Virus record (IMG/VR): IMGVR_UViG_2541047930_000003
Source of the DNA: a virus
Taxonomy: Duplodnaviria > Heunggongvirae > Uroviricota > Caudoviricetes
DNA: 51,780 nucleotides
Direction: 5' to 3' (one strand)
The stretch's first letter is position 1, and each line of letters opens with the position of its first letter. The notes beneath the pieces were generated by a model that saw nothing but the letters and a program-made list of their open reading frames with translations, did no database searches and was not told the origin of the DNA. Both the position numbers and the translations under genes were made by a program. Below, in pieces: positions 7,448-48,522 of this stretch.

Positions 7448-7555
7448 CTTTTTTCCCCTTAACGCCGGGGGGCGGAACGTTTTATCTACTGCGCTTTGTA
7501 TCAATCAACAACTGCCGTCATGTTCGTATGCCTCAGGCTGGCTACTTAGCCCTGT

Positions 7556-7681
7556 TCAGTGGCTGGATAACTCGAGGTATTGTCCTGCCGTTCTCCGGTG
7601 GGGCGTTGTTTGGATATGCTTATTAAACACAATTGGTTTTTGTGTGTCAACACAAAGTGTGTTTTTATAGTGGCGTGTCAT
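7556..7681 (-). CDS. Possible YdaG-like micro-ORF (41 aa); doubtful because it overlaps the operator/promoter palindromes
   Basis: Hand translation MTRHYKNTLCVDTQKPIVFNKHIQTTPHRRTAGQYLELSSH; no clear RBS; sits where Rac ydaG lies. Confidence 0.2.
   Translation of the reverse strand: MTRHYKNTLCVDTQKPIVFNKHIQTTPHRRTAGQYLELSSH
7620..7665 (-). promoter_or_regulatory. Candidate left operator/promoter (OL/PL): palindromes AACACA-AAG-TGTGTT (~7649-7663) and AACACAA-N7-TTGTGTG (~7626-7646) with leftward -35 TTGACA and -10 TTTAAT
   Basis: Same AACACA..TGTGTT palindrome recurs between the repressor and cro genes; promoter hexamers read on minus strand with 17-bp spacer. Confidence 0.5.
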
Positions 7682-7694
7682 ATGATGATGGTAC

Positions 7695-7725
7695 AAAAAA
7701 AGCCCGCCGATAGCGGGCTGATTGG
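7695..7725 (-). terminator. Rho-independent terminator downstream of the repressor gene
   Basis: Minus-strand hairpin AGCCCGCTATCGGCGGGCT followed by TTTTTTT. Confidence 0.6.
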
Positions 7726-7749
7726 CATATTACTGTGATAGCAAGATCA

Positions 7750-8169
7750 TTACTCCGGTGGGGGGGTATCTTTAAGCCTGCCCCTCAAATATTTTTCTAC
7801 ATACTCGTCGATTTCTTTTAGCCGGACTTCAAATAGCTCAATCATTCGTTGTTGTTCTGAGCCCGGTAGCTGGTTAAACAACTCAAGAAGTTTTCGTTGG
7901 GATTCATTTAACCACAATTCAGAAGAGTCTTTTTCCCCAAAGAGGAGCTCAGGAGGAGATATGCCCAGTGCCTTTCCCAGGACGACAGCATCATGCACTC
8001 CAACATTTCTGCTGCCCGCCTCATAGTTACCTATACGCGATTGCGTCCATCCGCAGATTTCAGCAAGTTTTCCTTGAGATAAACCAAGCTTCTGCCTGCG
8101 CTCTTTAAGACGCATTGCAATTTTGTCATTGAGCCTACTAGCGGCAATTTTTTCGTTTTCTTTTTCCAT
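7750..8169 (-). CDS. cI-like prophage repressor (139 aa, XRE-type HTH), RacR position
   Basis: LKERRQKLGLSQGKLAEICGWTQSRIGNYEAG HTH motif; divergent from cro-like gene; ATG at 8169. Confidence 0.8.
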   Translation of the reverse strand: MEKENEKIAASRLNDKIAMRLKERRQKLGLSQGKLAEICGWTQSRIGNYEAGSRNVGVHDAVVLGKALGISPPELLFGEKDSSELWLNESQRKLLELFNQLPGSEQQRMIELFEVRLKEIDEYVEKYLRGRLKDTPPPE

Positions 8170-8180
8170 TTCGTCCTTGT

Positions 8181-8245
8181 ATCACGAATCGTGATTTATA
8201 TAAAACACAAAATAGCTTGACCGTAAAACACAAGATGTGTTTAAA
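8181..8245. promoter_or_regulatory. Right operator region (OR) with divergent promoters: palindromes ATCACGAATCGTGAT (~8181-8195) and AACACA-AGA-TGTGTT (~8227-8241); candidate PR -35 TTGACC / -10 TTTAAA
   Basis: Perfect inverted repeats in the 96-bp gap between divergent repressor and cro-like genes; GGAGG RBS precedes the cro ATG. Confidence 0.55.
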
Positions 8246-8265
8246 ATTGTCGTCGGAGGTTTTTA

Positions 8266-8508
8266 ATGAACAAAATTTCAACATATCGAAAACAACTTGG
8301 TCTGTCTCAAAGACAACTCGCTGTTCAGCTAGGGTGGATACAAAGCCGACTAGCAAATTACGAAGCAAACTTTCGTACCCCTGGGCTAGAGGAGTGCAGA
8401 AAAATTGTTTCCACCCTTAATCGGCTTGGTGCTCATTGTGGACTTGACGATGTATTCCCCCCAGACGGTAAGCATAGCGAAAACAGCATAGGAGCGGTTG
8501 ATTCATGA
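8266..8508 (+). CDS. Cro-like HTH regulator (80 aa)
   Basis: MNKISTYRKQLGLSQRQLAVQLGWIQSRLANYEAN HTH; divergent from repressor; differs from my recollection of K-12 YdaS, suggesting a different immunity type. Confidence 0.7.
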   Translation: MNKISTYRKQLGLSQRQLAVQLGWIQSRLANYEANFRTPGLEECRKIVSTLNRLGAHCGLDDVFPPDGKHSENSIGAVDS

Positions 8509-8927
8509 AAATCAGGCATGAGCACATCGAATCAGTGTTGTTAGCCCTGGCAGCCGAAAAAGGGCAGGCGTGGGTTGCTAACGCAATTACTGAAGAATAT
8601 CTGCGCCAGGGGGGCGGCGAATTGCCCCTGGTACCAGGCAAGGACTGGAACAATCAGCAGAATATCTATCACCGTTGGTTGAAAGGTGAAACGAAAGCGC
8701 AAAGGGAAAAAATTCAGAAACTGATCCCTGCGGTTCTGGCAATTCTTCCGCGCGAGCTGCGTCACCGACTCTGCATCTTCGATACCCTGGAACGCCGTGC
8801 ATTACTGGCGGCGCAGGAAGCGTTGAGTACGGCAATTGATGCGCATGATGATGCAGTCCAGGCCGTTTACCGTAAAGCATATTTCAGCGGCGGTGGGTCG
8901 CCCGGCGATTCTGTCGTAGTGCATTGA
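8505..8927 (+). CDS. ydaT: YdaT (140 aa; reported CII-like regulator, historically called a toxin)
   Basis: MKIRHEHIESVLLALAAEKGQAWVANAITEEYLRQGGGELPLVPGKDWNNQQNIYHRWLKGETKAQREKIQKLIP... recognised as Rac YdaT; overlaps cro-like stop. Confidence 0.85.
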   Translation: MKIRHEHIESVLLALAAEKGQAWVANAITEEYLRQGGGELPLVPGKDWNNQQNIYHRWLKGETKAQREKIQKLIPAVLAILPRELRHRLCIFDTLERRALLAAQEALSTAIDAHDDAVQAVYRKAYFSGGGSPGDSVVVH

Positions 8928-9005
8928 TTGAAATTAATCGTGCCGGACTGTTTTGTTCGGTATCAGTTAAATGTAACGCTTACAGCGTTACAAGGTGAAA
9001 ACAAT

Positions 9006-9800
9006 ATGGCTTCAAACTGGATAAAGCTCGAGGTTATTACGCCGGATAAGCCGGAAATATTCAGGCTTGCTGAGATTCTGAATATTGATCCAGATGCCGC
9101 ATTAGGGAAAGTCATTCGCTTCTGGGCATGGGCGGATCAACAAATGATAGACGGTAACGCAGAGTGTAACGCTCGCGGCGTTACAAAAAGTGCAATAGAT
9201 CGCATCACTTTTATGGCTGGTTTTGCTGATGCGTTAATTCAGGTTGGATGGCTGGTCGAAAATAACGGTGGGCTTTCTCTACCTAACTTTGAACGTCATA
9301 ACGGAAAAAGCTCTAAAAAACGGGCGATTACAAACGAGAGGGTTACAAAAATACGCGAACTGAAACGAAAAGGTAACGCTGCCAGCGTTACACAAACGGA
9401 TCAAAAAGCGTTACCAGAGGAAGAGGAAGAGGAAGAGGAAGATATAAATACTGATCTCCCCCTAAATCCCCCTCGCCAAAAACGAGCATCTAAAAAATTC
9501 GAGCCGGAGGCTATTGAGTTGCCCGATTGGTTGCCGGAAACACTCTGGCATGAGTGGGTCCGGTTCAGGCAGGCATTGCGAAAACCGATTCGAACGGAGC
9601 AGGGCGCTAACGGGGCGATACGGGAACTGGAAAAATTCCGCCAGCAGGGTTTTACCCCTGAGCAGGTGATTCGACATAGCATCGCCAATGAATACCAGGG
9701 CTTGTTCGCGCCGAAAGGTGTTCGGCCTGAGACGTTGCTCAGACAGGTTAACACTGTCTCGTTGCCGGACAGTGCGATCCCGCCAGGCTTCAGGGGGTAA
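9006..9800 (+). CDS. Replication initiation protein (lambda O-like / YdaU-like, 264 aa) with internal poly-Glu linker
   Basis: Met27 of ORF 8928..9800 with AGGTGA RBS; precedes the DnaC-like loader; EEEEEEEED linker; palindromic repeats in and near the 5' part. Confidence 0.65.
   Translation: MASNWIKLEVITPDKPEIFRLAEILNIDPDAALGKVIRFWAWADQQMIDGNAECNARGVTKSAIDRITFMAGFADALIQVGWLVENNGGLSLPNFERHNGKSSKKRAITNERVTKIRELKRKGNAASVTQTDQKALPEEEEEEEEDINTDLPLNPPRQKRASKKFEPEAIELPDWLPETLWHEWVRFRQALRKPIRTEQGANGAIRELEKFRQQGFTPEQVIRHSIANEYQGLFAPKGVRPETLLRQVNTVSLPDSAIPPGFRG
9415..9438 (+). repeat. (GAGGAA)4 microsatellite encoding the poly-Glu linker of the replication protein
   Basis: gaggaagaggaagaggaagaggaagat read directly. 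Confidence 0.8.
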
Positions 9801-9806
9801 CGAACC

Positions 9807-10553
9807 ATGAAAAATATTGCGACAGGCGGCGTTCTGGAACGCATCCGCCGACTGACCCCGCCACATGTAACCGCCCCATTCAGAACGGTAGCGGAGTGGC
9901 GCGAGTGGCAACTTGCTGAAGGCCAGAAACGTAGCGAGGAGATCAACCGCCTGAATCGCCAGTTGCGGGTGGAAAAAATTCTGAATCGCTCAGGCATCCA
10001 GCCGTTGCACCGTAAATGCTCGTTTGCGAATTACCAGGTGCAGAACGACGGTCAGCGATACGCGTTGAGCCAGGCGAAATCTATCGCTGATGAACTGATG
10101 ACCGGGTGTACAAATTTTGCGTTCAGCGGAAAACCTGGTACCGGAAAAAACCATCTGGCGGCGGCTATCGGGAATCGCCTGCTGAAAGATGGCCAGACAG
10201 TGATTGTGGTTACCGTGGCTGATGTCATGAGTGCTCTACACGCCAGCTATGACGACGGGCAATCAGGCGAAAAATTTTTGCGGGAACTGTGCCAAGTGGA
10301 TCTGCTGGTTCTTGATGAAATTGGCATTCAGCGCGAGACAAAAAACGAGCAGGTGGTGCTGCACCAGATTGTTGATCGCCGGACAGCGTCGATGCGCAGC
10401 GTGGGGATGCTGACAAACCTGAACTATGAGGCCATGAAAACATTGCTCGGCGAGCGGATTATGGATCGCATGACCATGAACGGCGGGCGATGGGTGAATT
10501 TTAACTGGGAGAGCTGGCGTCCGAATGTCGTCCAGCCAGGAATTGCGAAGTGA
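9807..10553 (+). CDS. DnaC-like helicase loader ATPase (248 aa, YdaV-like)
   Basis: Walker [18 protein letters not shown], Walker B LLVLDEIG; immediately follows the O-like gene. Confidence 0.85.
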
Positions 10554-38287: not shown

Positions 38288-41200
38288 ATGGGTAAAGGCA
38301 GCAGTAAGGGGCATACCCCGCGCGAAGCGAAGGACAACCTGAAGTCCACGCAGTTGCTGAGTGTGATCGATGCCATCAGCGAAGGGCCGATTGAAGGTCC
38401 GGGGGATGGATTAAAAAGCGTGCTGCTGAACAGTACGCCGGTGCTGGACAGTGAGGGGAATACCAATATCTCCGGCGTCACGGTGGTGTTCCGGGCAGGT
38501 GAGCAGGAGCAGACACCGCCGGAGGGATTTGAATCCTCCGGCTCCGAGACGGTGCTGGGTACGGAAGTGAAATATGACACGCCGATCACCCGGACCATCA
38601 CGTCGGCAAACATTGACCGTCTGCGTTTTACCTTCGGTGTGCAGGCACTGGTGGAAACCACCTCAAAGGGTGACCGGAATCCGTCGGAAGTCCGCCTGCT
38701 GGTTCAGATACAACGTAACGGTGGCTGGGTGACGGAAAAAGACATTACCATTAAGGGCAAAACCACGTCGCAGTATCTGGCCTCGGTGGTGGTGGATAAC
38801 CTGCCGCCGCGCCCGTTTAATATCCGGATGCGCAGGATGACGCCGGACAGCACCACAGACCAGCTGCAGAACAAAACGCTCTGGTCGTCATACACCGAAA
38901 TCATCGATGTGAAACAGTGCTACCCGAACACGGCACTGGTCGGCGTACAGGTGGATTCGGAGCAGTTCGGCAGCCAGCAGGTGAGCCGTAATTATCATCT
39001 TCGCGGGCGCATTCTGCAGGTGCCGTCGAACTATAACCCGCAGACGCGGCAATACAGCGGTATCTGGGACGGAACGTTTAAGCCAGCATACAGCAACAAC
39101 ATGGCCTGGTGTCTGTGGGATATGCTGACCCACCCGCGCTACGGCATGGGTAAACGTCTTGGTGCGGCAGATGTGGATAAATGGGCGCTGTACGTCATCG
39201 GCCAGAATTGCGACCAGTCGGTGCCGGACGGCTTTGGTGGCACGGAGCCGCGCATCACCTGTAACGCTTACCTGACTACGCAGCGTAAAGCGTGGGATGT
39301 TCTCAGCGATTTCTGCTCGGCGATGCGCTGTATGCCGGTATGGAACGGGCAGACGCTGACGTTCGTGCAGGACCGACCGTCGGATAAGGTGTGGACCTAT
39401 AACCGCAGTAATGTGGTGATGCCGGATGATGGCGCGCCATTCCGCTACAGCTTCAGCGCCCTGAAGGACCGCCATAATGCCGTTGAGGTGAACTGGATTG
39501 ACCCGAATAACGGCTGGGAGACGGCGACAGAGCTTGTTGAAGATACGCAGGCCATTGCCCGTTACGGTCGTAATGTCACGAAGATGGATGCCTTTGGCTG
39601 TACCAGCCGGGGGCAGGCACACCGCGCCGGGCTGTGGCTGATTAAAACGGAACTGCTGGAGACGCAGACCGTGGATTTCAGCGTGGGTGCTGAAGGGCTT
39701 CGCCATGTACCGGGCGATGTCATTGAAATCTGCGATGATGACTATGCCGGTATCAGCATCGGCGGGCGCGTGCTGGCGGTAAACAGCCAGACCCGGACGC
39801 TGACGCTCGACCGTGAAATCACTCTGCCATCCTCCGGTACCACGCTGATAAGCCTGGTTGACGGAAGTGGCAATCCGGTCAGCGTGGAGGTTCAGTCCGT
39901 CACCGACGGCGTGAAGGTGAAAGTGAGCCGTGTTCCTGACGGCGTTGCTGAATACAGCGTGTGGGGGCTGAAGCTGCCGACGCTGCGCCAGCGCCTGTTC
40001 CGCTGCGTGAGTATCCGTGAGAACGACGACGGCACGTATGCCATCACCGCCGTGCAGCATGTACCGGAAAAAGAAGCCATCGTGGATAACGGGGCGCACT
40101 TTGACGGCGACCAGAGCGGCACGGTGAATGGTGTCACGCCGCCAGCGGTGCAGCACCTGACCGCCGAAGTCACCGCAGACAGCGGGGAATATCAGGTGCT
40201 GGCGCGCTGGGACACGCCGAAGGTGGTGAAGGGCGTGAGCTTCCTGCTCCGTCTGACCGTAACAGCGGATGACGGCAGTGAGCGGCTGGTCAGCACGGCC
40301 CGGACGACGGAAACCACATACCGCTTCAGGCAGCTGGCGCTGGGAAATTACAGGCTGACAGTCCGGGCGGTAAATGCATGGGGACAGCAGGGCGATCCTG
40401 CATCGGTATCGTTCCGGATCGCCGCACCGGCAGCGCCGTCGCGGATTGAGCTGACGCCGGGCTATTTTCAGATAACCGCCACGCCGCATCTTGCCGTTTA
40501 TGACCCGACGGTACAGTTTGAGTTCTGGTTCTCGGAAAAGCGGATTACCGATATCAGGCAGGTTGAAACCACAGCCCGCTATCTTGGTACGGCGCTGTAC
40601 TGGATAGCCGCCAGTATCAATATCAAACCGGGCCATGATTATTACTTTTATATCCGCAGTGTGAACACCGTTGGCAAATCGGCATTCGTGGAGGCCGTCG
40701 GTCGGGCGAGCGATGATGCGGAAGGTTACCTGGATTTTTTCAAAGGCAAGATAACCGAATCCCATCTCGGCAAGGAGCTGCTGGAAAAAGTCGAGCTGAC
40801 GGAGGATAACGCCAGCAGACTGGAGGAGTTTTCGAAAGAGTGGAAGGACGCCAACGATAAGTGGAATGCCATGTGGGCTGTCAAAATTGAGCAGACCAAA
40901 GACGGCAAACATTATGTCGCGGGTATTGGCCTCAGCATGGAGGACACGGAGGAAGGCAAACTGAGTCAGTTTCTGGTTGCCGCTAACCGTATCGCATTTA
41001 TTGACCCGGCAAACGGGAATGAAACGCCGATGTTTGTGGCGCAGGGCAATCAGATATTCATGAACGACGTGTTCCTGAAGCGCCTGACGGCCCCCACCAT
41101 TACCAGTGGTGGCAGTCCTCCGGTATTTTCCCTGACATCAGACGGAAAGCTGACCGCTAAAAATGCGGATATCAGTGGCAGTGTGAATGCGAACTCAGGA

Positions 41201-41701
41201 ACGCTCAACAATGTCACGATTAACCAGAACTGTACGATTAAGGGCATGCTGGAGGCGACCCAGGTCAGAGGGGATTTCGTTAAAGCTGTATCAAAAGCCT
41301 TCCCGAAAAAAGTCGGTACGTGGGGTAACACGGAAACACCAGACGGTACGGTTACAGTCACCATCAGCGATGATCATAACTTTGACCGCCAGATTATTAT
41401 TCCGCCCATTATTTTTAACGGTATAGCGTATGACGATCCGGGGAGCGGAAATAACCCAGGAGGCACGCGATACACGGGTTATGGTTTTGAAGTTCGCAAA
41501 AACGGCATATTAATCGCATCCAGAGAAACTAAAGGGGCCATTCCCGGTAGTTACAGTGCAGTTATTGATATGCCTAGTGGTGGTGGTAGCGTCACTCTGG
41601 AGTTTAAGATTTTCCAGAAAGGCAATCAGGGGGCAGGCAATATCACCGACTGTACGGTGATTGTGACCAAAAAAGCGGCTTCCGGCATCAGTATTCGTTG
41701 A
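38288..41701 (+). CDS. Host specificity protein J (central tail fibre, 1137 aa)
   Basis: N-terminus [37 protein letters not shown] matches lambda J; length 1137 aa. Confidence 0.92.
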
Positions 41702-41771: not shown

Positions 41772-42371
41772 ATGCGTAAAGTTTGTGCAGCAATTTTGTC
41801 CGCAGCCATTTGTCTGGCCGTATCCGGTGCGCCTGCATGGGCGTCTGAACATCAGTCCACGCTGAGCGCGGGGTATCTTCATGCCTCGACGAACGTCCCC
41901 GGCAGTGATGATCTGAACGGGATTAACGTGAAATACCGTTATGAGTTTACGGATACGTTGGGGCTGGTGACGTCATTCAGCTATGCAGGAGACAAGAATC
42001 GCCAGCTGACCCGTTACAGCGATACCCGCTGGCATGAAGATTCCGTTCGTAACCGCTGGTTCAGCGTAATGGCGGGGCCGTCTGTGCGCGTGAATGAATG
42101 GTTCAGCGCGTATGCGATGGCGGGTGTGGCTTACAGCCGTGTGTCGACTTTCTCCGGGGATTATCTCCGCGTAACTGACAACAAGGGGAAAACGCACGAT
42201 GTGCTGACCGGAAGTGATGACGGTCGCCACAGCAACACGTCTCTGGCGTGGGGAGCTGGCGTGCAGTTTAACCCGACCGAATCCGTGGCCATTGATATTG
42301 CTTATGAAGGCTCCGGCAGTGGCGACTGGCGCACTGACGGTTTCATCGTGGGTGTCGGTTATAAGTTCTGA
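41772..42371 (+). CDS. lom: Lom-like outer membrane protein (Ail/Lom family, 199 aa)
   Basis: Signal peptide, beta-barrel ending in aromatic residue (GYKF); position downstream of J. Confidence 0.85.
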   Translation: MRKVCAAILSAAICLAVSGAPAWASEHQSTLSAGYLHASTNVPGSDDLNGINVKYRYEFTDTLGLVTSFSYAGDKNRQLTRYSDTRWHEDSVRNRWFSVMAGPSVRVNEWFSAYAMAGVAYSRVSTFSGDYLRVTDNKGKTHDVLTGSDDGRHSNTSLAWGAGVQFNPTESVAIDIAYEGSGSGDWRTDGFIVGVGYKF

Positions 42372-42425: not shown

Positions 42426-42435
42426 TGGAGTGGAT

Positions 42436-44814
42436 ATGGCAGCAGTAAAAATCTCAGGTGTGCTGAAAGATGGTGCGGGAAAACCAATACAGAACTGCAC
42501 TATTCAACTGAAGGCAAAGCGTAACAGCACCACGGTACTGGTGAACACGGTGGCCTCTGAAAATCCGGATGAAGCCGGACGTTACAGCATGGATGTTGAG
42601 TATGGCCAGTACAGCGTCACCCTGCTGGTTGAAGGTTTTCCGCCTTCACATGCCGGGACCATTACCGTCTATGAAGGTTCCAGACCAGGTACGCTGAATG
42701 ATTTTCTCGGCGCCATGACGGAAGATGATGTCATGCCGGAGGCATTGCGTCGTTTTGAGGAAATGGTGGAAGAAGCGGCACGCAACGCTGAAGCCGCCTC
42801 TCAGAGCGCAGCGGCGGCAAAGAAATCCGAAACTGCAGCGGCATCATCGAAGAACGCGGCGAAAACCTCAGAAACGAATGCAGCTAACAGCGCACAGGCG
42901 GCAGCGACCTCACAGACTGCATCGGCAAACTCCGCGACAGCAGCCAAAAAATCAGAAACCAACGCGAAAAACAGCGAGACAGCCGCAAAGACGAGCGAAA
43001 CCAACGCAAAGTCCAGCCAGACGGCAGCGAAGACCAGCGAAACGAATGCCAAAGCCAGTGAAACTGCGGCAAAAAACAGCCAGGTTGCAGCAGCCCAAAG
43101 CGAGAGCGCGGCAGCCGGTTCTGCGACTTCAGCAGCTGGATCAGCAACTGCTGCGGCTAACAGCCAGAAAGCTGCGAAGACGAGTGAAACTAACGCAAAG
43201 TCCAGCCAGACGGCAGCGAAGACCAGCGAAACGAATGCCAAAGCCAGTGAAACTGCGGCGAAAAACAGTCAGGATGCTGCAGCCCAAAGCGAGAGTGCCG
43301 CAGCTGGTTCTGCAAGTGCGGCGGCTTCTTCTGCCACTGCATCAGCCAACAGTCAAAAAGCTGCAAAAACCAGTGAAACCAACGCAAAGGCGAGCGAGAC
43401 TGCGGCGGCTAACTCGGCGAAAGCATCCGCTGCAAGCCAGACGGCTGCAAAAGCAAGTGAAGACGCAGCCAGAGAGTATGCAAGCCAGGCTGCGGAGCCG
43501 TATAAACAAGTTTTGCAGCCGCTTCCAGATGTGTGGATACCGTTTAACGATTCACTGGATATGATTACGGGCTTTTCGCCATCATATAAAAAGATTGTTA
43601 TTGGTGATGATGAAATAACGATGCCTGGTGACAAGGTTGTTAAGTTTAAACGCGCATCGAAAGCAACCTATATTAATAAATCTGGTGTGCTGACAGAGGC
43701 TGCCATTGACGAGCCGCGATTTGAACGTGATGGCCTGCTTATTGAGGGGCAAAGAACTAATCTTCTGCTTAATTCAACAAATCCATCTAAATGGAATAAG
43801 TCAGGCAATCTGGAACTCACAGAAATATCCACGGATTCTTTTAATTTTACTTATGGGAGATTTACTGTAAAAGATACTCTTATTGATCAGACAAGTGCGA
43901 TTAATATCGTAACGGTTTCTGGCAGTAAAGGATTTGATGTCACAGGTGATGAAAAATATGTGACCATTTCATGCCGTGTCAGAAGTGATGTTGAAAATAT
44001 AAGGTGTCGTTTAAGATTTGAACATCATGATGGTTCTACTTACACTTTTTTGGGAGATGCTTACCTCAATTTATCAACACTTGTAATTGATAAGACTGGT
44101 GGTGCAGCAAATCGTATTATTGCAAAGGCTGTAAAAGATGAGGCTACTGGTTGGATTTTCTATCAGGCTACAATTAATGCACTAGATACAGAGAGCATGA
44201 TTGGTGCGATGGTTCAATATGCTCCAGTAAAAGGTTCAGGCACAGCATCTGGAGACTATCTGGATATCGCAACTCCACAAGTGGAAGGTGGATCAAGTGC
44301 TTCGTCATTTATTGTAACTGATATAACTGCAAGCACTCGCGCAAGCGATATGGTGACAGTCCCAATCAAGAATAACCTTTATAATCTTCCTTTTACGGTT
44401 CTTTGTGAGGTACATAAGAACTGGTATAAAACGCCAAATGCAGCGCCACGTGTTTTTGATACCGGTGGTCATCAAACCGGAGCGGCTATTATTCTTGGCT
44501 TCGGTCGTTCAACAGATTATGACGGATTTCCTTATTGCGATATTGGAGGAGCTAACAGACGGGTAAACGAAAACGCATTGCTTGAAAAAATGGTTATGGG
44601 GATGCGTGTAAAGTCAGATCAGTCTACGTGCTCAGTAAGTAACGGGCGTATATCCAGCGAAACAAAAGCCACATGGTCCTATATTCAGAACACCGCAATT
44701 ATCCGTATTGGAGGCCAGACTACAGCCGGGTTACGTCATTTATTTGGTCATGTCAGGAATTTCAGAATATGGCACAAGGCATTGACTGATGCTCAGGTGG
44801 GGGAGTTAATCTAA
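42436..44814 (+). CDS. stf: Side tail fibre protein (Stf-like, 793 aa) with lambda-Stf-like N-terminus, SETNAK tandem-repeat shaft and divergent AT-rich C-terminal domain
   Basis: MAAVKISGVLKDGAGKPIQNCTIQLKAKRNSTTVLVNTV... matches lambda Stf N-terminus; Met3 of ORF 42430..44814; C-terminus ends FRIWHKALTDAQVGELI. Confidence 0.85.
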   Translation: MAAVKISGVLKDGAGKPIQNCTIQLKAKRNSTTVLVNTVASENPDEAGRYSMDVEYGQYSVTLLVEGFPPSHAGTITVYEGSRPGTLNDFLGAMTEDDVMPEALRRFEEMVEEAARNAEAASQSAAAAKKSETAAASSKNAAKTSETNAANSAQAAATSQTASANSATAAKKSETNAKNSETAAKTSETNAKSSQTAAKTSETNAKASETAAKNSQVAAAQSESAAAGSATSAAGSATAAANSQKAAKTSETNAKSSQTAAKTSETNAKASETAAKNSQDAAAQSESAAAGSASAAASSATASANSQKAAKTSETNAKASETAAANSAKASAASQTAAKASEDAAREYASQAAEPYKQVLQPLPDVWIPFNDSLDMITGFSPSYKKIVIGDDEITMPGDKVVKFKRASKATYINKSGVLTEAAIDEPRFERDGLLIEGQRTNLLLNSTNPSKWNKSGNLELTEISTDSFNFTYGRFTVKDTLIDQTSAINIVTVSGSKGFDVTGDEKYVTISCRVRSDVENIRCRLRFEHHDGSTYTFLGDAYLNLSTLVIDKTGGAANRIIAKAVKDEATGWIFYQATINALDTESMIGAMVQYAPVKGSGTASGDYLDIATPQVEGGSSASSFIVTDITASTRASDMVTVPIKNNLYNLPFTVLCEVHKNWYKTPNAAPRVFDTGGHQTGAAIILGFGRSTDYDGFPYCDIGGANRRVNENALLEKMVMGMRVKSDQSTCSVSNGRISSETKATWSYIQNTAIIRIGGQTTAGLRHLFGHVRNFRIWHKALTDAQVGELI
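42975..43320 (+). repeat. Roughly 189-bp near-identical tandem direct repeat (2 copies) inside stf
   Basis: gcaaagtccagccagacggcagcgaagaccagcgaaacgaatgccaaagccagtgaaactgcggc... recurs 189 bp later. Confidence 0.8.
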
Positions 44815-45095
44815 TGAAAGATTTAACACTCAAATTTGTCGACAGGGCCGACTTTTCGGCCTTTATGGAGAGTATCGGCTATTATGATGATGAGTCGATG
44901 CAGGATGATATTCTTATTGACGTGATAGGTAACGTGTACAAAGAAACCGGAGAACTTACCGAAGATGGCGAGCCGGTATGTGTTAAGGAAGACGGATATT
45001 TTGTAAACGTGCGCATCATTAATGATGCAAAAAAATCGTCAATATTCGATGAATACGTGGTTGCTGTTGAGCATCAACTTCGTGGCTGGATGTGA
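44814..45095 (+). CDS. Hypothetical acidic protein (93 aa) between the two fibre genes
   Basis: ORF 44814..45095, overlaps stf stop; no family recognised. Confidence 0.4.
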   Translation: MKDLTLKFVDRADFSAFMESIGYYDDESMQDDILIDVIGNVYKETGELTEDGEPVCVKEDGYFVNVRIINDAKKSSIFDEYVVAVEHQLRGWM

Positions 45096-45104
45096 GGAAG
45101 AAAA

Positions 45105-46145
45105 ATGGCTACATCGACAGTAATTCCTGAAGACATCAAAACGCTAAAATCCGACGTTAGCAAATTAAAAAACGATCAAGGAAGCTACGCAACAAAATCA
45201 TATGTAGACAGCAAAGATGAAACCGTTGGTGACTGGTCTGCTTCATGGTATCAGCAGGTATTGCCAACTAGCGGAGCTATATTTGGGAGAAAACTCCGCT
45301 CAACTCACAGGACGGCAGGTGTTGAGGATGCGTATTGCGAACTATACCTCAAAAAATGGATAGACAGTCCAGGTAACGCAATGGCGCGCCTTAACCTGAA
45401 CGATAACGGGACAAACATTTGCTGGGACTTTACCAACCTTTATGGCGGTACGATGATTTTTCCCGGTGACAGCGGATACCTCAAAATGGGTAACTGCCTT
45501 ATGTCATACAGTAAGCGTGGAAGTAACGCGCTTATTAAATTTGATTACACCGACACATTACAGATCAAATATGCCAATCATGGGTCAACCATGACATTAA
45601 ACACACAGGGAACCGCTTATGCTGGTGTTACTGCTCAATTGTGGGGCAACTCCAGCCGTCCTGTTGTTTATGAAGTCGGTGTTGATGGTGGCGCTTATAT
45701 GTTCTATGCGCAGAAAACTACCAGCAATACCTACGAATTAACGGTTAACGGCGCGTGCAATGCAAGTGCATTTAATCAAGGCTCTGACCGGGATCTGAAA
45801 GACAATATTCAGGTGATCGATAATGCAACCGACCGCATTCGTAAAATGAACGGCTATACATACACGCTTAAAGAAAACGGTATGCCTTACGCTGGTGTTA
45901 TTGCACAAGAAACCCTGGAAGCCATCCCCGAAGCCGTAGGGTCTATGATGAAATATCCAGACGGCGGGAGTGGATTAGATGGAGAAGAAGGTGAACGGTA
46001 TTACACTGTAGATTATTCTGGTGTTACTGGCTTGCTTGTTCAGGTAGTCAGAGAGTCAGACGACAGAATAACAGCACTGGAAGAAGAAAACGCAGAATTA
46101 AGACAAAGATTATCTGCAATTGAGGCGGCGCTTGCGTCTAAATAA
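45105..46145 (+). CDS. Tail fibre / tailspike-like protein with C-terminal S74 intramolecular chaperone domain (346 aa)
   Basis: C-terminal SDRDLKDNIQVIDNATDRIRKMNGYTYTLKENGMPYAGVIAQE then coiled coil, matching the S74 auto-processing chaperone signature. Confidence 0.6.
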   Translation: MATSTVIPEDIKTLKSDVSKLKNDQGSYATKSYVDSKDETVGDWSASWYQQVLPTSGAIFGRKLRSTHRTAGVEDAYCELYLKKWIDSPGNAMARLNLNDNGTNICWDFTNLYGGTMIFPGDSGYLKMGNCLMSYSKRGSNALIKFDYTDTLQIKYANHGSTMTLNTQGTAYAGVTAQLWGNSSRPVVYEVGVDGGAYMFYAQKTTSNTYELTVNGACNASAFNQGSDRDLKDNIQVIDNATDRIRKMNGYTYTLKENGMPYAGVIAQETLEAIPEAVGSMMKYPDGGSGLDGEEGERYYTVDYSGVTGLLVQVVRESDDRITALEEENAELRQRLSAIEAALASK

Positions 46146-46150
46146 TATTA

Positions 46151-46178
46151 AGGGGCCGAGCGCCCCGTTTTATTGGGT
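46151..46178 (+). terminator. Rho-independent terminator after the second fibre gene
   Basis: ggggccgagcgccccgttttatt. Confidence 0.65.
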
Positions 46179-46181
46179 AGG

Positions 46182-46478
46182 ATGAAAATGGATATAACAC
46201 CTTTCCTTCATGCTCTTTGTGCTGTGGCTGCGCAGCTACTGATTGGTCTTTTTACCGGGAACTGGGCTTACGGAGCGATAGCCGGTTGTACGTTCTTCAT
46301 TGCGCGTGAACACACCCAGGCAGAATATCGCTGGATTGAAATGTTCGGGCATGGCAAGCGGATTAACATGCCGTGGTGGGGCGGTTTTGATCCGCGCGTG
46401 TGGGATGTGGCAAGCATGATGGATTTTGCTGTGCCGGTGGTGGCGTGTCTGCTGGTCTGGCTGTTGGTTAATCGCTAA
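46182..46478 (+). CDS. Hypothetical small inner-membrane protein (98 aa, 2 predicted TM segments)
   Basis: Met4 of ORF 46173..46478; hydrophobic stretches at both ends. Confidence 0.4.
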   Translation: MKMDITPFLHALCAVAAQLLIGLFTGNWAYGAIAGCTFFIAREHTQAEYRWIEMFGHGKRINMPWWGGFDPRVWDVASMMDFAVPVVACLLVWLLVNR

Positions 46479-46990
46479 AGTCATCATATCAGGGGAACAC
46501 AGCAGGGGCTGGTTTTACATAAAAAAGCCCACCAGTGAGGTGGGCAACAGGAATGATTAATTATCTCAAAGAGAAACATCATGTTTCTCTTTGCAACTTC
46601 TAACATGAAAATGTGGAGAAATAATGGAGTTTATATTAACTGGTGATTATGCAACCAACTTCTTATGCAAAACAATATAGTTATTTATACCTGACTGGTC
46701 TTATGCATACACCTAAACAGGTGTATTACGTAATGAAACAGACTGGCGAATATGTTTGAGCAAACTCCACTGAACCGCAGACGTTATGGTCATGTTGCAT
46801 AGTGTTTTGGAATATAAAGAATTATATATGAGTTCGCTGTTTGTAACCTGAAAAACAATAACGAATGTTATAATAAACTTGTTTGTTGTGCTGCTTTCAC
46901 ATTTTCTCATTAATCTTACCAGTAATATTTTTGTTGCTTTGTTGTTTCTGTTTTTTTATAAAAAAGAGGTGGTGCAGAGGAGGAAATATA

Positions 46991-47704
46991 GTGGATAAAA
47001 AACTAATTGCATTTTTGTGCACACTTATAATTACTGGTTGCTCGGATGGGATCGGTGATTCACCTTCGCCACCGGGAAAGAATGTAGAATTAGTCGGAAT
47101 TCCAGGGCAAGGTGTCGCTGTTGCTTCAAATGGCACATCTCCAACATTTGGGAGCAACAGTACTGACTTTCCTGATGTTTCAATAATGAGCACAGGGGGA
47201 GCGATGCTTACTGTTTGGGCCAGACCTGTCCGTAACTGGCTTTGGGGATATACTCCGTTTGATTCAGTAAGTTTTGGAGAGAATCGGAACTGGAAGGTTG
47301 TGGATGGTAAAGATGCCGGTACAGTGAAATTTGTTAATGTTGCCCAGGGGACTTGCATGGAGGCCTTTAAAAACGGGGTGATACATAATACCTGTGATGA
47401 TAATTCGTTATCTCAGGAGTTTCAGTTACTGCCTTCTACTAATGGTAATGTGCTTATAAGAAGTAGTGCCTTGCAGACGTGTATAAGAGCAGACTATTTA
47501 AGCAGAACTATACTGTCACCGTTTGCTTTTACAATCACCCTTGAGAAGTGTCCTGGTGCAAAAGAAGAAACGCAAGAAATGCTATGGGCAATAAGTCCAC
47601 CTGTCAGAGCGGCAAAACCAAATCTGATTAAACCAGAATTAAGACCATTCAGACCATTGCCAATTCCACCTCATGACAAACCTGATGGAATGGAGGGAGT
47701 ATGA
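46991..47704 (+). CDS. cdtA: Cytolethal distending toxin subunit A (lipoprotein, 237 aa)
   Basis: GTG start (Val37 of ORF 46883..47704) 7 nt after GAGGAGG RBS; lipobox LIITGCS; ricin-B-like CdtA sequence; 714 bp consistent with CDT-I cdtA. Confidence 0.88.
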   Translation: MDKKLIAFLCTLIITGCSDGIGDSPSPPGKNVELVGIPGQGVAVASNGTSPTFGSNSTDFPDVSIMSTGGAMLTVWARPVRNWLWGYTPFDSVSFGENRNWKVVDGKDAGTVKFVNVAQGTCMEAFKNGVIHNTCDDNSLSQEFQLLPSTNGNVLIRSSALQTCIRADYLSRTILSPFAFTITLEKCPGAKEETQEMLWAISPPVRAAKPNLIKPELRPFRPLPIPPHDKPDGMEGV

Positions 47705-48522
47705 AAAAATTATTATTCCTGTTAATGATTTTGCCGGGTATTTCTTTTGCAGATTTAAGCGACTTTAAAGTTGCAACCTGGAATTTGCAGGGCTCAAATG
47801 CACCGACAGAAAATAAATGGAACACACATGTTCGACAACTTGTCACGGGAAGTGGTGCTGTTGATATCCTGATGGTTCAGGAGGCTGGTTCAATACCATC
47901 TTCAGCTACACTAACGGAACGTGAATTTCGTACACCAGGTATCCCAATGAATGAGTATATCTGGAATACTGGAACGAATAGCCGTCCACAGCAGCTTTTT
48001 ATTTATTTTTCGCGAACTGATGCTCTTTCTAATAGAGTAAATTTAGCGATAGTATCTAACAGAAGAGCTGATGAGGTGATTGTATTATCACCTCCAACAG
48101 TGGCATCGCGTCCGATCATTGGAATAAGAATAGGTAATGATGTTTTCTTCTCAACTCATGCATTGGCAAACCGAGGTATAGATTCTGGAGCAATTGTTAA
48201 CAGTGTTTTTGAGTTTTTCAACAGACAAACAGATCCTATAAGACAGGCCGCTAACTGGATGATTGCAGGAGATTTCAACCGTTCACCTGCTATGTTATTT
48301 TCAACACTTGAGCCGGGAATCCGTAATCACGTGAATATTATTGCACCACCAGATCCAACGCAGGCCAGTGGTGGAGTGCTTGATTATGCTGTAGTTGGAA
48401 ACTCAGTGAGTTTTGTGCTTCCCCTGTTGAGGGCTTCGCTGTTATTTGGGTTGTTAAGAGGGCAAATTGCCTCTGATCACTTTCCGGTTGGCTTCATTCC
48501 CGGAAGAGGAGCTAGAAGATGA
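47701..48522 (+). CDS. cdtB: Cytolethal distending toxin subunit B (DNase I-like genotoxin, 273 aa)
   Basis: Signal peptide; DLSDFKVATWNLQGSNAP...DILMVQEAG CdtB signature; ATGA overlap with cdtA. Confidence 0.92.
   Translation: MKKLLFLLMILPGISFADLSDFKVATWNLQGSNAPTENKWNTHVRQLVTGSGAVDILMVQEAGSIPSSATLTEREFRTPGIPMNEYIWNTGTNSRPQQLFIYFSRTDALSNRVNLAIVSNRRADEVIVLSPPTVASRPIIGIRIGNDVFFSTHALANRGIDSGAIVNSVFEFFNRQTDPIRQAANWMIAGDFNRSPAMLFSTLEPGIRNHVNIIAPPDPTQASGGVLDYAVVGNSVSFVLPLLRASLLFGLLRGQIASDHFPVGFIPGRGARR

Follow-up and report, generated by a model that had tools for sequence, protein, structure and literature searches.

The viral DNA analyzed here, a window of 51,780 nucleotides (nt) comprising the whole of IMG/VR record IMGVR_UViG_2541047930_000003 (Duplodnaviria; Heunggongvirae; Uroviricota; Caudoviricetes), is a lambdoid prophage of Escherichia coli with a type IV cytolethal distending toxin (CDT-IV) operon. 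We consider it reasonably likely that the product of its side tail fiber gene, Stf, is the proximal subunit of what is probably a two-part side fiber and that it carries an accessory, glycan-binding module of tandem concanavalin A (ConA)-like/laminin G (LamG) domains. The analysis itself establishes a shift in base composition, the predicted fold of the module, its pattern of variation, the mosaic structure of the gene, and the synteny of the cassette to which it belongs; glycan binding, the trimer geometry, and the docking roles are inferred. The stf open reading frame (ORF), at 42430..44814 on the + strand, codes for 794 amino acids (aa) from a GTG start, and the start chosen in RefSeq, an ATG at 42436, gives 792 aa; the translation ends in ...HLFGHVRNFRIWHKALTDAQVGELI (likewise given as ...FGHVRNFRIWHKALTDAQVGELI and ...LRHLFGHVRNFRIWHKALTDAQVGELI).

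An AlphaFold2 model of Stf aa 358 to 794, built on an alignment of 90 diverse relatives, is all-β, with a predicted local distance difference test (pLDDT) score of 92.9 and a predicted template-modeling (pTM) score of 0.90, and displays the curved two-sheet β-sandwich (jelly roll) typical of the ConA-like lectins/glucanases. Foldseek aligned the module over ~370 to 400 columns with the Pa193/E217 baseplate wedge proteins, neurexin L2-L3, laminin LG4-5, and tandem galectins; because these partners are two-domain proteins aligned over that length, the module is predicted to comprise two tandem sandwiches. The same two-domain layout is common among predicted viral structures, often under the label "Concanavalin A-like lectin/glucanases superfamily" (template-modeling scores of 0.6 to 0.7 over the whole query). 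The best-scoring structural matches are sugar-binding modules, namely, AbnA domain 4, CBM40, and the sialidase lectin domain, and it is this predicted fold that points to glycan binding by the module. The original prediction, made from the sequence of this stretch, had proposed a lectin-like domain at the end of Stf; the confident model bears out the lectin-like fold, with two domains in place of one, and both this two-domain nature and the fiber genes downstream had been missed.

Sequence profiles converge on the same region. Searched alone, the module matches the Pfam family Laminin_G_3 (PF13385) at Stf aa 742 to 790 (profile positions 102 to 150 of 151; E = 0.0059), exactly where a LamG/ConA-like C-terminal motif had been suspected, and the same family is matched by 58 of the 90 diverse relatives at E ≤ 0.01 (best E = 1.3e-8), with CBM_4_9 matched by 7 of the 90. 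With full-length Stf as the Pfam query, the C-terminal half drew no match at E ≤ 0.1, the Laminin_G_3 similarity emerging only with the module alone and across the relatives. The NCBIfam model NF048003 (phage head spike fiber, GTA_spike_fiber) covers aa 437 to 638 (profile positions 1 to 181 of 182) with a score of 59.2 bits, above its cutoff of 36, and PHROG 1419 (phage tail protein) matches over the full length at 1483 bits (aa 4 to 794 on profile positions 1 to 793 of 793). In a sequence search of the PDB, the sole significant match was Rcc01080 from RcGTA (chain 6tb9_F3; E = 8.5e-5), which was dropped as evidence for the fold because only residues 2 to 10 of that chain are resolved.

Judging from the alignments, the module corresponds to Stf aa ~362 to 794, a placement made because homology to unrelated phages begins at 43514 (aa 362). 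Conservation was analyzed in 119 non-redundant relatives, and invariant residues were taken from the alignment of the 90 diverse ones. Three parts can be distinguished, all on the + strand. The first is a conserved N-terminal framework (aa ~362 to 450; 43514..43779), recognized by its conservation and by the start of homology, with the motifs PLPDVW... and F.RAS.ATYI.K.G.L..A..EPRFE..GLLIEG..TN; no other part of the family is as well conserved, the mean identity to the query being 0.55 to 0.83 in the four 10-aa blocks that begin at aa 408, 418, 428, and 438, and the majority of the invariant residues are located here. The second, the variable core of predicted β-sandwich domain 1 (aa ~451 to 630; 43780..44320), lies inside the NF048003 match and behaves as an exchangeable allele in its entropy and nt identity pattern. 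The third combines a conserved interdomain segment with the LamG_3-like β-sandwich domain 2 (aa ~631 to 794; 44321..44811), to which the Laminin_G_3 match and the terminal motif belong. In terms of conservation blocks, a hypervariable domain-1 core (aa ~451 to 617) is followed by the conserved interdomain segment (aa ~618 to 647; Q.E.LPFASSYIPT.GAA.TRA.D) and a variable domain-2 core (aa ~648 to 767), and the terminal motif GH(V/I)RN.RIWH.ALTD.Q falls among the most conserved columns of the family. Column entropy is about 3 bits in both sandwich cores. From a set of 1.84 billion representative proteins, 2222 relatives were retrieved at E ≤ 0.001, and among the best 150 of the 2222, re-scored locally, each full-length match ends ~0 to 11 residues before the protein's C terminus.

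The module also stands out in base composition. Guanine-plus-cytosine (GC) content is 55.4% over 42430-43500 and 40.9% over 43501-44814, and an unconstrained two-segment maximum-likelihood scan located the optimal break between segments at base 43501 (aa 358), with a log-likelihood gain of 25; a two-proportion z computed from the same counts is ~7 for the difference between the two stf segments. Across the change point, third-codon-position GC falls from values between 0.44 and 0.60 to values between 0.20 and 0.42 (0.20 to 0.30 in the domain-1 core), and because the third position is affected too, the shift is not solely a product of the alanine-rich shaft that precedes the module. The claim that the C-terminal ~430 aa are AT rich and distinct in composition from the rest of the gene is thereby upheld, except that the tract extends past the end of stf, at 41.5% GC over 44814-45095 and 44.6% over 45105-46145, before 52% is reached again at 46173-46478. 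Because the AT-rich tract spans the next two genes, the acquired unit is larger than originally thought.

Comparison with individual phages resolves this acquisition further. Homology to the T5-like Salmonella phage FGS017 covers 43514-44837, at 91.8% nt identity over 1324 nt, and the FGS017 locus has a GC content of 39.9% versus 40.9% for the module. Identity profiles in 90-nt windows reveal 96 to 100% nt identity to FGS017 over aa 391 to 600, with 94 to 100% (mostly 98 to 100%) in the domain-1 core and 76 to 93% in domain 2. Against Tritos, the closest lambdoid relative, nt identity is 90 to 100% in the N terminus and shaft, only 54 to 66% in the domain-1 core, where the modules of the two differ, 82% in the block of aa 631 to 660, and 97 to 99% in domain 2 from aa 661 on. 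The domain-2 allele of the window is shared (≥90% aa identity) by 81 of 223 relatives, 74 of which combine it with another domain-1 allele, a pattern by which domain 1 is evidently shuffled independently of domain 2. Given the identity mosaic with FGS017 and Tritos and this allele shuffling, horizontal acquisition of the C terminus, as the original prediction had proposed, is supported at subdomain resolution. As far as sequence comparison can tell, hypervariable cores in a conserved framework with independent domain-1 swaps are the pattern expected of a specificity determinant. Of 5426 complete E. coli genomes, 177 carry the domain-1 allele; among phage records it is present in a single one, that of FGS017 (98.7%). 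On a separate count, 36 of the 213 places where the domain-1 core allele lies in E. coli are on plasmid-classed records, some of ~46 kb, which suggests phage-plasmids or extrachromosomal prophages with the same fiber.

The stf gene is followed by two further genes of a conserved three-gene cassette. The first encodes a 93-aa acidic protein (44814..45095, + strand; PHROG 1361), translationally coupled to stf through an ATG that overlaps the stf stop codon (TAATG). A ~92-aa homolog comes next after every module gene examined, i.e., those of the lambdoid phages Tritos and ev207, the T5-like phages FGS017, IrisVonRoten, and SelmaRatti, Seuratvirus KurtStettler, Drexlerviridae phage EC125, and one rV5-like phage, which makes it the constant partner of the module gene. 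Searches with the 93-aa protein gave no meaningful Pfam or NCBIfam match and a chance-level PDB profile match (E = 0.5), the homolog search returned close E. coli copies only (84 to 98% identical), and its AlphaFold2 model was unusable (pLDDT of 46). The second gene encodes a 346-aa distal fiber protein (45105..46145, + strand; PHROG 4563, tail fiber) with a C-terminal intramolecular chaperone (Pfam Peptidase_S74, aa 227 to 278; E = 6.5e-14). Most cassettes likewise have a second fiber protein after the ~92-aa gene, variable in length and sequence and usually with an S74 chaperone, and the order of module-bearing proximal fiber, ~92-aa gene, and S74 distal fiber recurs in IrisVonRoten, FGS017, KurtStettler, SelmaRatti, and Tritos. 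The N-terminal ~26 residues of the distal fiber (MATSTVIPEDIKTLKSDV...; MxTxTxIPxDITxLK), a putative docking peptide, are kept among otherwise different distal fibers. Among the listed matches to its first 60 aa, the full-length ones are from T5-like phages, most of them also listed as module carriers; residues 27 to 60 constitute a generic, widespread fiber motif that occurs also in DT57C LtfA. The co-occurrence of the N-terminal peptide and the module is an indirect hint that the distal fiber may be attached to the proximal one. Because this second fiber gene has its own receptor-binding region, the lectin module probably serves as an accessory binder and is not the only one; ev207 has Stf and the 92-aa gene without a distal fiber gene, so that the module can itself be the end of a fiber.

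On the basis of these observations, we propose that the lambda-type N terminus would anchor Stf to the tail and the alanine-rich heptad shaft would lengthen the fiber, with each chain ending in the ~430-aa module of two tandem ConA-like/LamG β-sandwiches. Three copies of the module at the fiber end might then bind a glycan on the host surface (O-antigen, capsule, or core) multivalently and with low affinity, adding a second specificity to that of the 346-aa distal fiber encoded two genes downstream. The domain-1 core would serve as a swappable specificity cassette, and the conserved flanks would keep the fold together while possibly providing recombination joints and surfaces touched by the 93-aa partner and/or the distal N-terminal peptide. 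The module and the two downstream genes would have recombined in from a gene pool on which virulent T5-like, T1-like, Queuovirinae, and rV5-like coliphages also draw.

Several points weigh against a glycan-binding module of this kind. The model is of a monomer, and any arrangement of the modules on the trimer is presumed. The botulinum toxin Hcn domain, for which we know of no established sugar ligand, is also among the best structural matches, and ConA-like/LamG folds elsewhere also bind proteins or serve structure alone. The Laminin_G_3 score of 17.2 bits lies below the gathering score of 27.6 and concerns only the last 49 profile positions. Residues conserved in at least 90% of the 90 relatives are all in the framework segments, bar S157 and G404 (module numbering), and because they avoid the sandwich cores apart from these two, no sugar or Ca2+ site common to the family stands out; with the strongest conservation in the framework segments, the conserved job of the module could be protein-protein docking.

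The main rival to our interpretation takes up this last point and holds that the module is a structural hub only, forming with the 93-aa protein a socket for the distal N-terminal peptide and making no host contact, so that the 346-aa fiber does all the recognition. It is in line with the confinement of the invariant residues of the family to the framework, with the retention of the three-gene order in lambdoid, T5-like, Seuratvirus, and Drexlerviridae phages, and with the fact that distal fibers have just their first ~26 residues in common, the full-length ones among the matches listed belonging to module-carrying phages. The T-shaped distal fiber attaches to this proximal fiber according to PMC11990801, and the Pa193 baseplate protein gp46 offers a precedent for such a hub. 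A pure adaptor should be conserved, yet both sandwich cores are hypervariable (~3 bits), and domain 1 is exchanged as a unit between phages that retain the rest. Moreover, ev207-type lambdoid phages retain the module and the 92-aa protein in the absence of a distal fiber gene, and rV5-like phages have different genes after the module. We therefore regard a purely structural role as unlikely and prefer a module that contacts host glycans.

Less probable still is recognition of an outer membrane protein rather than a carbohydrate, after the manner of Ur-lambda Stf, whose target has been reported to be OmpC in work cited in a passage of PMC12312913. LamG/ConA-like sandwiches often engage in protein-protein contacts, and the structural matches include neurexin, laminin LG, and botulinum toxin Hc; nevertheless, the top matches are to the sugar-binding AbnA, CBM40, and sialidase lectin domains, and seven relatives match CBM_4_9 in sequence. 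The distant relative Rcc01080 is part of a head spike that binds capsule polysaccharide, and O-antigen is thought to be the target of the lateral fibers in the module-bearing T5-like, T1-like, and Queuovirinae phages (PMC8594841). Finally, a role for the module as a ConA-like glucanase- or lyase-type enzyme (GH16-like or polysaccharide lyase) that depolymerizes surface polysaccharide is highly improbable and was rejected, since across the 90 relatives neither core has a conserved acidic residue from which a catalytic pair could be proposed, Pfam matched no family of glycoside hydrolases or lyases, and the structural matches to enzymes are weaker.

The closest described counterpart of the glycan-binding arrangement we favor is the fiber of Tequintavirus IrisVonRoten (Bas32), predicted in the second BASEL paper of 2025 (PMC11990801; Fig 12B therein), where its module was called "galectin-like" and considered a possible additional receptor-binding domain. 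The C-terminal module of its proximal fiber protein Gp22 (bas32_0022) is homologous to that of the window from end to end, at 65.5% aa identity, and bas32_0022-0023-0024 have the same order of fiber, ~92-aa protein, and S74 distal fiber. It differs from the window in having a T5-type N terminus attached through LtfC rather than one of lambda Stf type, a distal fiber that is a 574-aa T-shaped protein with two receptor-binding domains rather than one of 346 aa, and other domain-1 and domain-2 alleles. FGS017 (vB_Si_CECAV_FGS017; accession no. PP429239) has the module in tail protein vBSiCECAVFGS017_189, followed in the same order by the 92-aa gene and the distal fiber; this 110-kb phage is, however, virulent and was isolated on Salmonella Infantis, the N-terminal two-thirds of its protein are unrelated, and its 92-aa protein and distal fiber are 41% and 17% identical, respectively, to those of the window. 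More remote is the RcGTA head spike fiber protein Rcc01080 of Rhodobacter capsulatus, whose similarity extends over the framework strands and domain 1, as in the PDB and NF048003 matches above; it is located on the capsid rather than the tail, is 325 aa long, and lacks the LamG_3-like second domain in the match. The RcGTA head fibers mediate attachment to the host capsule polysaccharide, according to a statement in PMC7296036 citing Westbye 2016. Ur-lambda Stf shares the PF08400 N terminus and the place after J and lom, whereas the window has a tandem lectin-fold C terminus of 430 aa, other partner genes, and no Tfa family found by Pfam. As background on this class of fibers, Gifsy-1 Stf, which binds Gal II of the lipopolysaccharide core, is described as 50.65% identical to Ur-lambda Stf.

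A broader proposal, which we advance tentatively and regard as possible but rather doubtful, is that the module, the ~92-aa protein, and the distal 26-residue peptide make up a universal joint by which interchangeable distal fibers are mounted on a proximal fiber with a swappable glycan-binding domain, across lambdoid, T5-like, T1-like, and Queuovirinae phages. LtfA and LtfB of phage DT57C follow the same two-protein logic, in that a tail-tied proximal protein bears an S74 fiber and each can add specificity (PMC4728585, PMC10713586), but LtfA lacks a lectin module and carries an S74 chaperone itself, and the 92-aa gene is not described there. The N terminus of LtfB has been reported to be similar to phiEco32 gp15. 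LtfA/LtfB was rejected as a direct homolog because LtfA is without the module and because the N-terminal 60 residues of the distal fiber matched DT57C at positions 27 to 60 only (in ltfA), not at positions 1 to 26; the branched DT57C fiber is a functional analog, not a homolog, of the joint.

The remainder of Stf is of lambda type, as the original prediction had recognized for both the N terminus and the repeat shaft. The virion attachment domain (aa 1 to 135; 42430..42834, + strand) matches Pfam PF08400 (prophage tail fiber N-terminal) at aa 5 to 134 (E = 7e-67) and has 83 to 100% nt identity to the lambdoid phages Tritos and ev207, being unrelated to the T5-like phages. It is succeeded by the alanine-rich shaft (aa ~136 to 361; 42835..43513, + strand; 56.9% GC over 42831-43500), in which a 189-nt (63-aa) unit is repeated in 2.3 copies at 42970-43407, with heptad units of 21/42 nt nested inside; from the heptad period, the shaft is presumed to be a trimeric coiled coil. 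Relatives of Stf span about 650 to 850 aa in length, a spread that may reflect variation in repeat number.

The gene order J (38288-41701), lom (41772-42371), stf is that of lambda and, together with PF08400, identifies this protein as a lambda-type Stf. The gene between J and stf codes for an outer membrane protein of the Lom/Ail family (Pfam PF06316; E = 1.5e-122). The 9.2-kb stretch around stf matches four complete E. coli genomes at 100% identity, and in these the RefSeq order is J, Lom, "prophage tail fiber N-terminal domain-containing protein," hypothetical, "tail fiber domain-containing protein," hypothetical, and cdtABC. Among the downstream ORFs tested (44814-46478), Pfam found no match to a Tfa-type tail fiber assembly family; besides the fiber with Peptidase_S74, they comprise the 93-aa protein and a 101-aa protein, each without a Pfam family. 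The ORF for the latter, hydrophobic protein (46173-46478; PHROG 1443) has a backbone-like GC content of 52%, and because it is 95% identical in nt to its counterpart in ev207, which itself has no distal fiber gene, it belongs to the lambdoid backbone and not to the acquired cassette. Beyond a spacer of 35% GC (46479-46882), the type IV cdtA-cdtB-cdtC genes (46992-49091; ORFs from 46883) lie directly 3′ of the tail fiber cassette as low-GC cargo (41 to 42%). In ev207, the sitABCD manganese/iron transporter operon directly follows the fiber cassette (7546-10334 of the examined locus), so that the slot behind the fiber cassette houses differing fitness genes, sitABCD in ev207 versus cdtABC in the window.

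The module family is common in coliphage fibers and has already been described in print, which makes the case of this window an ordinary one: the family is cataloged as PHROG 1419 and NCBIfam NF048003, some RefSeq records read "phage head spike fiber domain-containing protein," and the exchange of fiber modules and lectin-like tips are both well established, so that current understanding is unchanged. What the analysis adds is an annotation, by which the "prophage tail fiber N-terminal domain-containing protein" of RefSeq becomes the proximal gene of a three-gene cassette with a predicted tandem ConA-like/LamG module of the head-spike-fiber family, and a clean case of subdomain exchange between a temperate CDT-IV prophage of E. 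coli and a virulent T5-like Salmonella phage. For host range engineering of lambda-type particles, the domain-1 core makes a good candidate. If the universal joint is real, these phages would have a branched fiber with two independently exchangeable specificities, and the 92-aa protein would be a new fiber connector or assembly factor.

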